Source of the DNA: Escherichia coli
GTDB taxonomy: Bacteria; Pseudomonadota; Gammaproteobacteria; Enterobacterales; Enterobacteriaceae
DNA: 64,000 nt
Strand: one strand, 5' to 3'
NCBI RefSeq assembly: GCF_003018255.1
Contig: NZ_CP027440.1
Part shown: piece by piece, positions 12,788 through 16,284 of the stretch
Position numbering within the stretch: the first letter of the stretch is position 1
How the letters are laid out: the number at the start of each line of letters is the position of its first letter
Translations under genes and position numbers: made by a program
The notes under the pieces: generated by a model
Databases searched by the model: none
The model's input: the letters and a program-made list of their open reading frames with translations, nothing else
Told to the model about the DNA's origin: nothing

Positions 12788-13615
12788 ATGACATTGCAAC
12801 AACAAATAATAAAGGCGCTGGGCGCAAAACCGCAGATTAATGCTGAAGAGGAAATTCGTCGTAGTATCGATTTTCTGAAAAGCTACCTGCAAACTTATCC
12901 GTTCATTAAATCACTGGTGCTCGGGATCAGCGGCGGTCAGGACTCCACACTTGCCGGTAAGCTGTGCCAGATGGCGATTAATGAGCTGCGCCAGGAGACC
13001 GGCAACGAATCACTGCAATTTATTGCCGTACGCCTGCCCTATGGTGTTCAGGCCGACGAACAAGATTGCCAGGATGCCATTGCCTTTATTCAACCGGATC
13101 GCGTATTAACCGTTAATATCAAGGGCGCGGTATTGGCCAGCGAACAGGCGCTGCGCGAAGCGGGTATTGAATTAAGTGATTTTGTCCGTGGCAATGAAAA
13201 AGCGCGTGAGCGGATGAAAGCACAATATAGCATTGCGGGTATGACCAGCGGTGTCGTGGTGGGCACCGATCATGCTGCAGAAGCCATTACCGGATTCTTC
13301 ACTAAATATGGTGACGGCGGTACGGATATTAATCCGCTGTATCGTCTCAACAAACGCCAGGGTAAACAGTTACTGGCGGCATTAGGTTGCCCGGAACACC
13401 TTTATAAGAAAGCCCCAACGGCCGATCTGGAAGATGATCGCCCTTCTCTGCCAGATGAAGTGGCACTCGGCGTGACCTATGACAATATCGACGACTATCT
13501 GGAAGGGAAAAACCTACCTGAACAGGTCGCCAGAACAATAGAGAACTGGTATCTGAAAACCGAACATAAACGCCGTCCGCCAATTACCGTTTTCGATGAT
13601 TTCTGGAAAAAGTAA
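12788..13615 (+). CDS. nadE: NH3-dependent NAD+ synthetase
   Basis: 275-aa ORF with PP-loop SGGQDS motif. Confidence 0.95.
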
Positions 13616-13656
13616 TAATTTGCACATATTGGTTTGTGCGAAAAAGAGTACTTTGT

Positions 13657-13757
13657 TCACGCCGGATGCGGCGTGAACGCCTTACTCGACCTACAAAACT
13701 ATGCAAATTCAATACATTGCAGGAGTCGAATAGGCCTGACAGGCGTAGCACGTCAGA
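13657..13757. repeat. BIME/RIP-type REP cluster (nadE-cho intergenic)
   Basis: REP unit GCCGGATGCGGCGTGAACGCCTTACTCGACCTAC and inverted partner AATAGGCCTGACAGGCGTAGCACGTCAGAC; central segment near-identical to the one at 6540-6580. Confidence 0.8.
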
Positions 13758-13810
13758 CGGTGTAACCTTTGTCATCGACCCGCCTCTTTTTTAATCGCTC
13801 TCCGCCTGTT

Positions 13811-13830
13811 ACACTGGATAGATAACCAGC
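13811..13830 (+). promoter_or_regulatory. LexA (SOS) box upstream of cho
   Basis: ACACTGGATAGATAACCAGC: CTGG-N8-CCAG palindrome, a non-canonical SOS box variant, 15 bp before the cho start. Confidence 0.7.
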
Positions 13831-13844
13831 ATTCGGAGTCAACA

Positions 13845-15345
<1,501 letters not shown>

Positions 15346-16110: not shown

Positions 16111-16284
16111 AAAGAAAATTTGATGGAGAGTAATGAGAGAATATTACAACACGATGATTTTGCAGAGATTATGAAGAACTATACCGGATGACTGGTGATA
16201 AATAAAGCAAATAACCAGGATTAATCTGTATTAATTTATAAGAAAGTAACTTAATACCCGCAGAATGATTTCTGCGGGTAAGTA

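Follow-up and report, generated by a model that had tools for sequence, protein, structure and literature searches.

Cho is a homologue of the N-terminal part of UvrC and acts as an SOS-inducible back-up nuclease for the 3' incision of nucleotide excision repair. Shortly ahead of its gene in Escherichia coli stands a site with the half-sites CTGG and CCAG, and the question raised by this locus is whether those arms mark a non-canonical, weakened LexA operator that delays induction of cho, or an ordinary LexA box. We addressed this in a 64,000-nucleotide stretch of E. coli DNA (contig NZ_CP027440.1), referred to below as the window, in which all positions are numbered. Almost certainly, the site is the sole LexA operator of cho (ydjQ), a gene listed in catalogues of the E. 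coli SOS regulon, and it is of intermediate strength.

Genomic setting

The window derives from the E. coli chromosome and has the gene order nadE-cho-ves-spy, followed by astE. Of 5426 complete E. coli genomes, 5425 have a match to the 401 bases surrounding the site, with nadE and “excinuclease Cho” annotated at that place, and the 34-nucleotide segment 13805-13838 finds an exact match of at least 28 nucleotides in 5086 of the 5426. The K-12 MG1655 gene is b1741, and neither its box nor its start-codon region differs from the window. When the protein was compared with the NCBIfam equivalog NF007833, it scored 577.5 bits over residues 1-287 (cut-off 367) and is thus assigned to Cho. The features at the start of the gene are as follows.

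13812-13831, no strand given: LexA (SOS) box of cho, CACTGGATAGATAACCAGCA, in the standard 20-mer frame; from the published motif, heterology index and conservation
13835-13838, plus strand: Shine-Dalgarno sequence GGAG, 6 nt ahead of the GTG; GAG (13836-13838) in 75/75 and G13835 in 69/75 aligned upstream regions
13845-14732, plus strand: cho (ydjQ) coding sequence, 295 amino acids, GTG start; open reading frame, RefSeq “excinuclease Cho”, NCBIfam NF007833

At its other end, cho (plus strand, ending at 14732) converges with ves (minus strand), and the 3' ends of the two genes overlap by 41 nt (14692-14732); the same overlap is found in the K-12 annotation (1824362-1824402). The nadE-cho spacer also holds a REP-like element at 13646-13687, an imperfect inverted repeat of 19 nt that is 79% complementary, has a 4-nt loop and contains GCCGGATGCGGCGTGAACGCCTTA. 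Most other genera lack this repeat in their aligned spacers.

Frame and symmetry of the box

A preliminary description of this DNA quoted the site as the 20-mer ACACTGGATAGATAACCAGC. That sequence is present at 13811-13830, with CTGG-N8-CCAG inside it at 13814-13829, but the standard 20-mer frame, TACTG(TA)5CAGTA, lies one base to the right, at 13812-13831. The gap to the GTG is 14 nt when counted from 13830 and 13 nt when counted from 13831. The same description called the 20-mer a perfect palindrome, which is wrong: it is self-complementary at only 6 of 20 positions. Within the 16-mer core, CTGGATAGATAACCAG (13814-13829), 12 of 16 positions are self-complementary (6 of 8 pairs); perfect symmetry is confined to the CTGG and CCAG arms. 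This core has two features of E. coli-type LexA boxes, namely CTG and CAG trinucleotides 10 bp apart and an A/T-rich spacer; the inner eight bases, ATAGATAA, are A or T at seven positions, the sole G being at 13821.

Published record

The assignment of a LexA site to cho was correct, and the box is already known, having stood in catalogues of the SOS regulon since 2000. In a UV tiling-array study (PMC3009722, Table 4), the LexA motif reported ahead of UV-induced cho is TACACTGGATAGATAACCAGCATTC, and the box in the window is identical to it. A 2019 review of the SOS response places cho (ydjQ) under “Known SOS box” (PMC6590174, Table 1), a listing that rests on Fernandez de Henestrosa 2000 and Courcelle 2001. 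Measured with the lexA3 allele, LexA cleavage makes a 5.1-fold difference to cho expression (PMC11228462, Table 1). In sequence, position, gene and range of heterology index (HI), the site does not differ from the catalogued E. coli cho (ydjQ) box.

The HI published for cho is 7.5, a mid-range value that falls between lexA (7.4) and ruvA (7.6) and is better than those for uvrD, dinG, ftsK, dinB and polB (PMC11228462). For Salmonella ydjQ, a single box with an HI of 6.69 and a 3.3-fold induction by nalidixic acid are on record.

Heterology index of the site

The bare pattern CTG-N10-CAG is uninformative in this DNA: there are 27 matches in the window, and dinucleotide shuffles predict 12.7. This excess probably reflects codon usage, CTG and CAG being very common E. 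coli codons. We therefore built an HI matrix with the Berg-von Hippel/Lewis formula from 17 E. coli boxes of PMC3009722 Table 4, cho being excluded, and used it to scan both strands of the whole 64-kb window. The cho box was the best site found (HI 7.93). In 40 first-order Markov simulations, sites with an HI of 7.93 or lower arose by chance at a mean of 0.025 per 64 kb (1/40). The working threshold for a LexA box is an HI below 15, and proven boxes mostly fall below 13 (PMC11002266); both the computed value of 7.93 and the published 7.5 lie well inside these limits. Among the CTG-N10-CAG matches, only the cho box and one ydjM box score as LexA boxes, and one further site in the window with an HI below 13 has no CTG-N10-CAG.

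The second and third best sites of the window are two overlapping LexA-like boxes at 1530-1567, CACTGTATAAAAACCCTATA (1530-1549, HI 10.5) and TACTGTACGTATCGACAGTT (1548-1567, HI 9.9). Directly after them is an open reading frame (1570-2172) of 200 amino acids with a match to the equivalog NF008651 (YdjM-type metal-dependent hydrolase), an arrangement that resembles the known SOS gene ydjM with its tandem boxes. A weak LexA-like 20-mer, TGCTTTATTTATCACCAGTC, lies on the minus strand at 16190-16209 in the spy-astE spacer; it has an HI of 12.4, is without the left CTG and is probably a chance occurrence.

The inner G and C

Relative to the consensus gammaproteobacterial box TACTG(TA)5CAGTA, as found for example at umuDC and sbmC, the cho box shares CTG-N10-CAG and the A/T-rich spacer (7/8). 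It carries a real HI penalty at five positions, C1, G6, G10, C15 and C19, whereas the cost at position 14 is a negligible 0.14. The costliest single deviation is the central G13821, at 3.14 HI units; C at box position 1 costs 1.44 and C at position 19 costs 0.82. The left inner G accounts for 1.82 and the right inner C for 0.57, which together make 2.39 of the 7.93 units (30%).

These inner bases recur in other boxes. A left inner G is present in 3 of the 18 boxes tabulated in PMC3009722 Table 4 (ruvA, cho, dinG) and a right inner C in 7 of the 18 (recN, dinI, ruvA, uvrD, cho, uvrB, dinB). The ruvAB box, CGCTGGATATCTATCCAGCA, is likewise CTGG-N8-CCAG and has nearly the same HI (7.6 versus 7.5 for cho), although it belongs to another gene and has another central spacer sequence. 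Since a box with the same arms and a near-equal HI serves ruvA, the inner G/C variant is an ordinary functional form: the two bases are tolerated natural variants and do not define a special class of operator. Given these arms in ruvA, the mid-range published HI and the 30% share of the inner pair, the terms “non-canonical” and “weaker”, which had been applied to the cho box, overstate its divergence.

Timing of induction

The first proposal for this site, read as an operator kept weak and non-canonical on purpose so that cho responds late or to high damage, is improbable. Such a reading can point to the divergence of the box from consensus (HI 7.5-7.9) and to the small induction of cho in every data set we have seen. 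A weak box, however, would release LexA sooner, not later. In the literature it is low, not high, HI that is tied to late expression: the classical view, as set out in PMC11002266, holds that low-HI genes are expressed later, and the time course reported in that paper (2024) finds that HI tracks the amplitude of induction and not its timing. With ciprofloxacin, cho had already risen by 10 minutes (log2 0.92) and reached a maximum of only 1.59 (PMC11002266), so that both the classical model and the observed early, low-amplitude response speak against a late induction or one strongly dependent on damage, as had been proposed. The cho HI also matches those of lexA and ruvA, and the inner G and C, on which the argument for weakness was based, contribute only 2.39 of 7.93 HI units. 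Note that AZT did not induce cho (0.77-fold; PMC11228462).

Conservation in Enterobacteriaceae

To examine conservation, a Cho protein scan was made with one genome per species; it gave 80 Enterobacteriaceae loci, of which 79 include upstream DNA. When the 150 nt preceding the start codon were searched in all 79 cho loci, the top-scoring LexA-like site was in each case a CTG-N10-CAG box. Its end is 11-16 nt from the start codon, mostly 12-13 nt, and just before the GGAG Shine-Dalgarno sequence. The inner positions vary by lineage, being T or G on the left and A or C on the right, and the loci divide by half-site form as follows.

CTGT..ACAG: 27 loci
CTGG..ACAG: 24 loci
CTGG..CCAG: 23 loci, including Escherichia, Salmonella and most Citrobacter
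Other forms: 5 loci

HI values over the 79 loci range from 3.0 to 9.8, and E. coli is placed toward the weaker end but within the range of the family. In an alignment of 75 distinct cho upstream regions, ACTG (13813-13816), CAG (13827-13829) and GAG (13836-13838) are invariant (75/75 each), and there is essentially no conservation upstream of about 13780.

Two observations concern individual records. Some E. coli strains (for example GN4738, L083) have T in place of C at 13812, box position 1, giving TATACTGG. Separately, an enterobacterial cho locus is carried by CACSKA010000006.1 (L046), which is labelled Chryseobacterium sp. 18061. In its LexA box this record does not differ from Citrobacter sp. 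18056 (L076), which comes out of the same project, and a wrong label or contamination is therefore probable.

Predicted overlap of promoter and operator

Conservation extends beyond the left end of the box. G13808, T13810 and A13811 are present in 75/75 sequences and T13807 in 69/75. All four positions are outside the 20-mer and are without a mirror counterpart on the right, so a symmetric LexA dimer is insufficient to explain them. Together with box positions 1-4 these bases read TGnTAYACT; as to the hexamer, 38 sequences have TATACT and 34, E. coli among them, have TACACT. From this comparison the conserved TGnTAYACT, which overlaps the left arm of the box, is probably an extended -10 element. 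The elements predicted from it, and a conserved run of T residues farther upstream, are listed here.

13786-13792, plus strand: conserved C-TTTTTT run, 17-18 nt upstream of the predicted -10; from column counts in 75 nadE-cho spacers
13807-13815, plus strand: predicted extended -10, TG-n-TACACT (TG at 13807-13808, hexamer at 13810-13815); from conservation
13822, plus or minus about 2 nt, plus strand: predicted transcription start, 7 nt past the -10 hexamer; from spacing

If transcription begins at the predicted start, the leader would be about 23 nt long and would carry the Shine-Dalgarno sequence, and the LexA box would extend from about -10 to +10. A sigma-70 promoter and terminator scan of 13560-13960 returned neither a -35/-10 pair nor a terminator; such a simple promoter scan needs two recognizable hexamers, and extended -10 promoters are therefore missed by it. 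No transcription start for cho (b1741) appears in the Cappable-seq supplementary text or among the listed entries of the Kim et al. 2012 table of transcription start sites, which is unsurprising because the gene is repressed and weakly expressed.

In Kosakonia, Enterobacter and Klebsiella the T-run follows a GC-rich hairpin and so serves as the T-tract of an intrinsic nadE terminator. No such hairpin was predicted before the T-run in E. coli or Salmonella arizonae, in which the T-run and the CCGCCTC preceding it persist. At 13786-13792 the run may occupy the -35 zone of the predicted cho -10.

The presence of these signals permits another reading of the conservation, in which it comes only from the promoter and ribosome-binding region, or from another regulator, and LexA is incidental. 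The left arm does overlap the conserved -10-like element, and the Shine-Dalgarno sequence is just downstream. Against this, the right-arm CAG at 13827-13829 is retained in 75/75 sequences exactly 10 bp from the CTG, which a -10 element would not require, and the dependence of cho expression on lexA has been published (PMC11228462). We consider this reading very improbable, even more so than late induction through a weakened operator. A functionless chance inverted repeat, for which one could cite only the 27 occurrences of CTG-N10-CAG in the window, was rejected on the HI score (the best-scoring site, with 0.025 expected per 64 kb) and on the conservation of position and sequence in 79/79 species, its probability being negligible.

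Probable mode of repression and a possible tuning of basal expression

With the site taken as the LexA operator of cho, a LexA dimer would bind the half-sites CTGG and CCAG. The box overlaps both the predicted -10 and the predicted start, which suggests repression by promoter occlusion; bound LexA would most likely block either the binding of RNA polymerase or the opening of the promoter. After DNA damage, RecA-stimulated self-cleavage of LexA leads to derepression of SOS genes, and at this locus self-cleavage would free the cho promoter. A box of intermediate strength (HI about 7.5-7.9) combined with a weak-looking promoter would fit a modest, early induction of low amplitude.

The predicted -10 hexamer TAYACT takes in box positions 1-4, and a C/T exchange at 13812 would therefore alter promoter strength and LexA affinity together. 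With T instead of C the HI falls from 7.93 to 6.49, and the predicted -10 would change from TACACT into the improved TATACT; T is found at 13812 in half of the genera as well as in some E. coli strains. With bases shared in this way by -10 and operator, the lineage-specific inner states (CTGT/ACAG, CTGG/ACAG and CTGG/CCAG) could reflect selected tuning of the basal level of Cho instead of neutral drift. We offer this idea tentatively, and regard it as unlikely. If true, it would refine a known operator in a small way and not establish a new type of element.

Significance

Beyond the correct annotation of the cho box, the import of these results is small. What is added here is that the position of the box is invariant over 79 enteric species and that CTGG/CCAG is an ordinary variant, common to ruvA. 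The one mildly new element is comparative evidence for a putative extended -10 promoter that would share bases with the operator. This probable overlap gives a concrete, testable picture of how LexA may repress cho.
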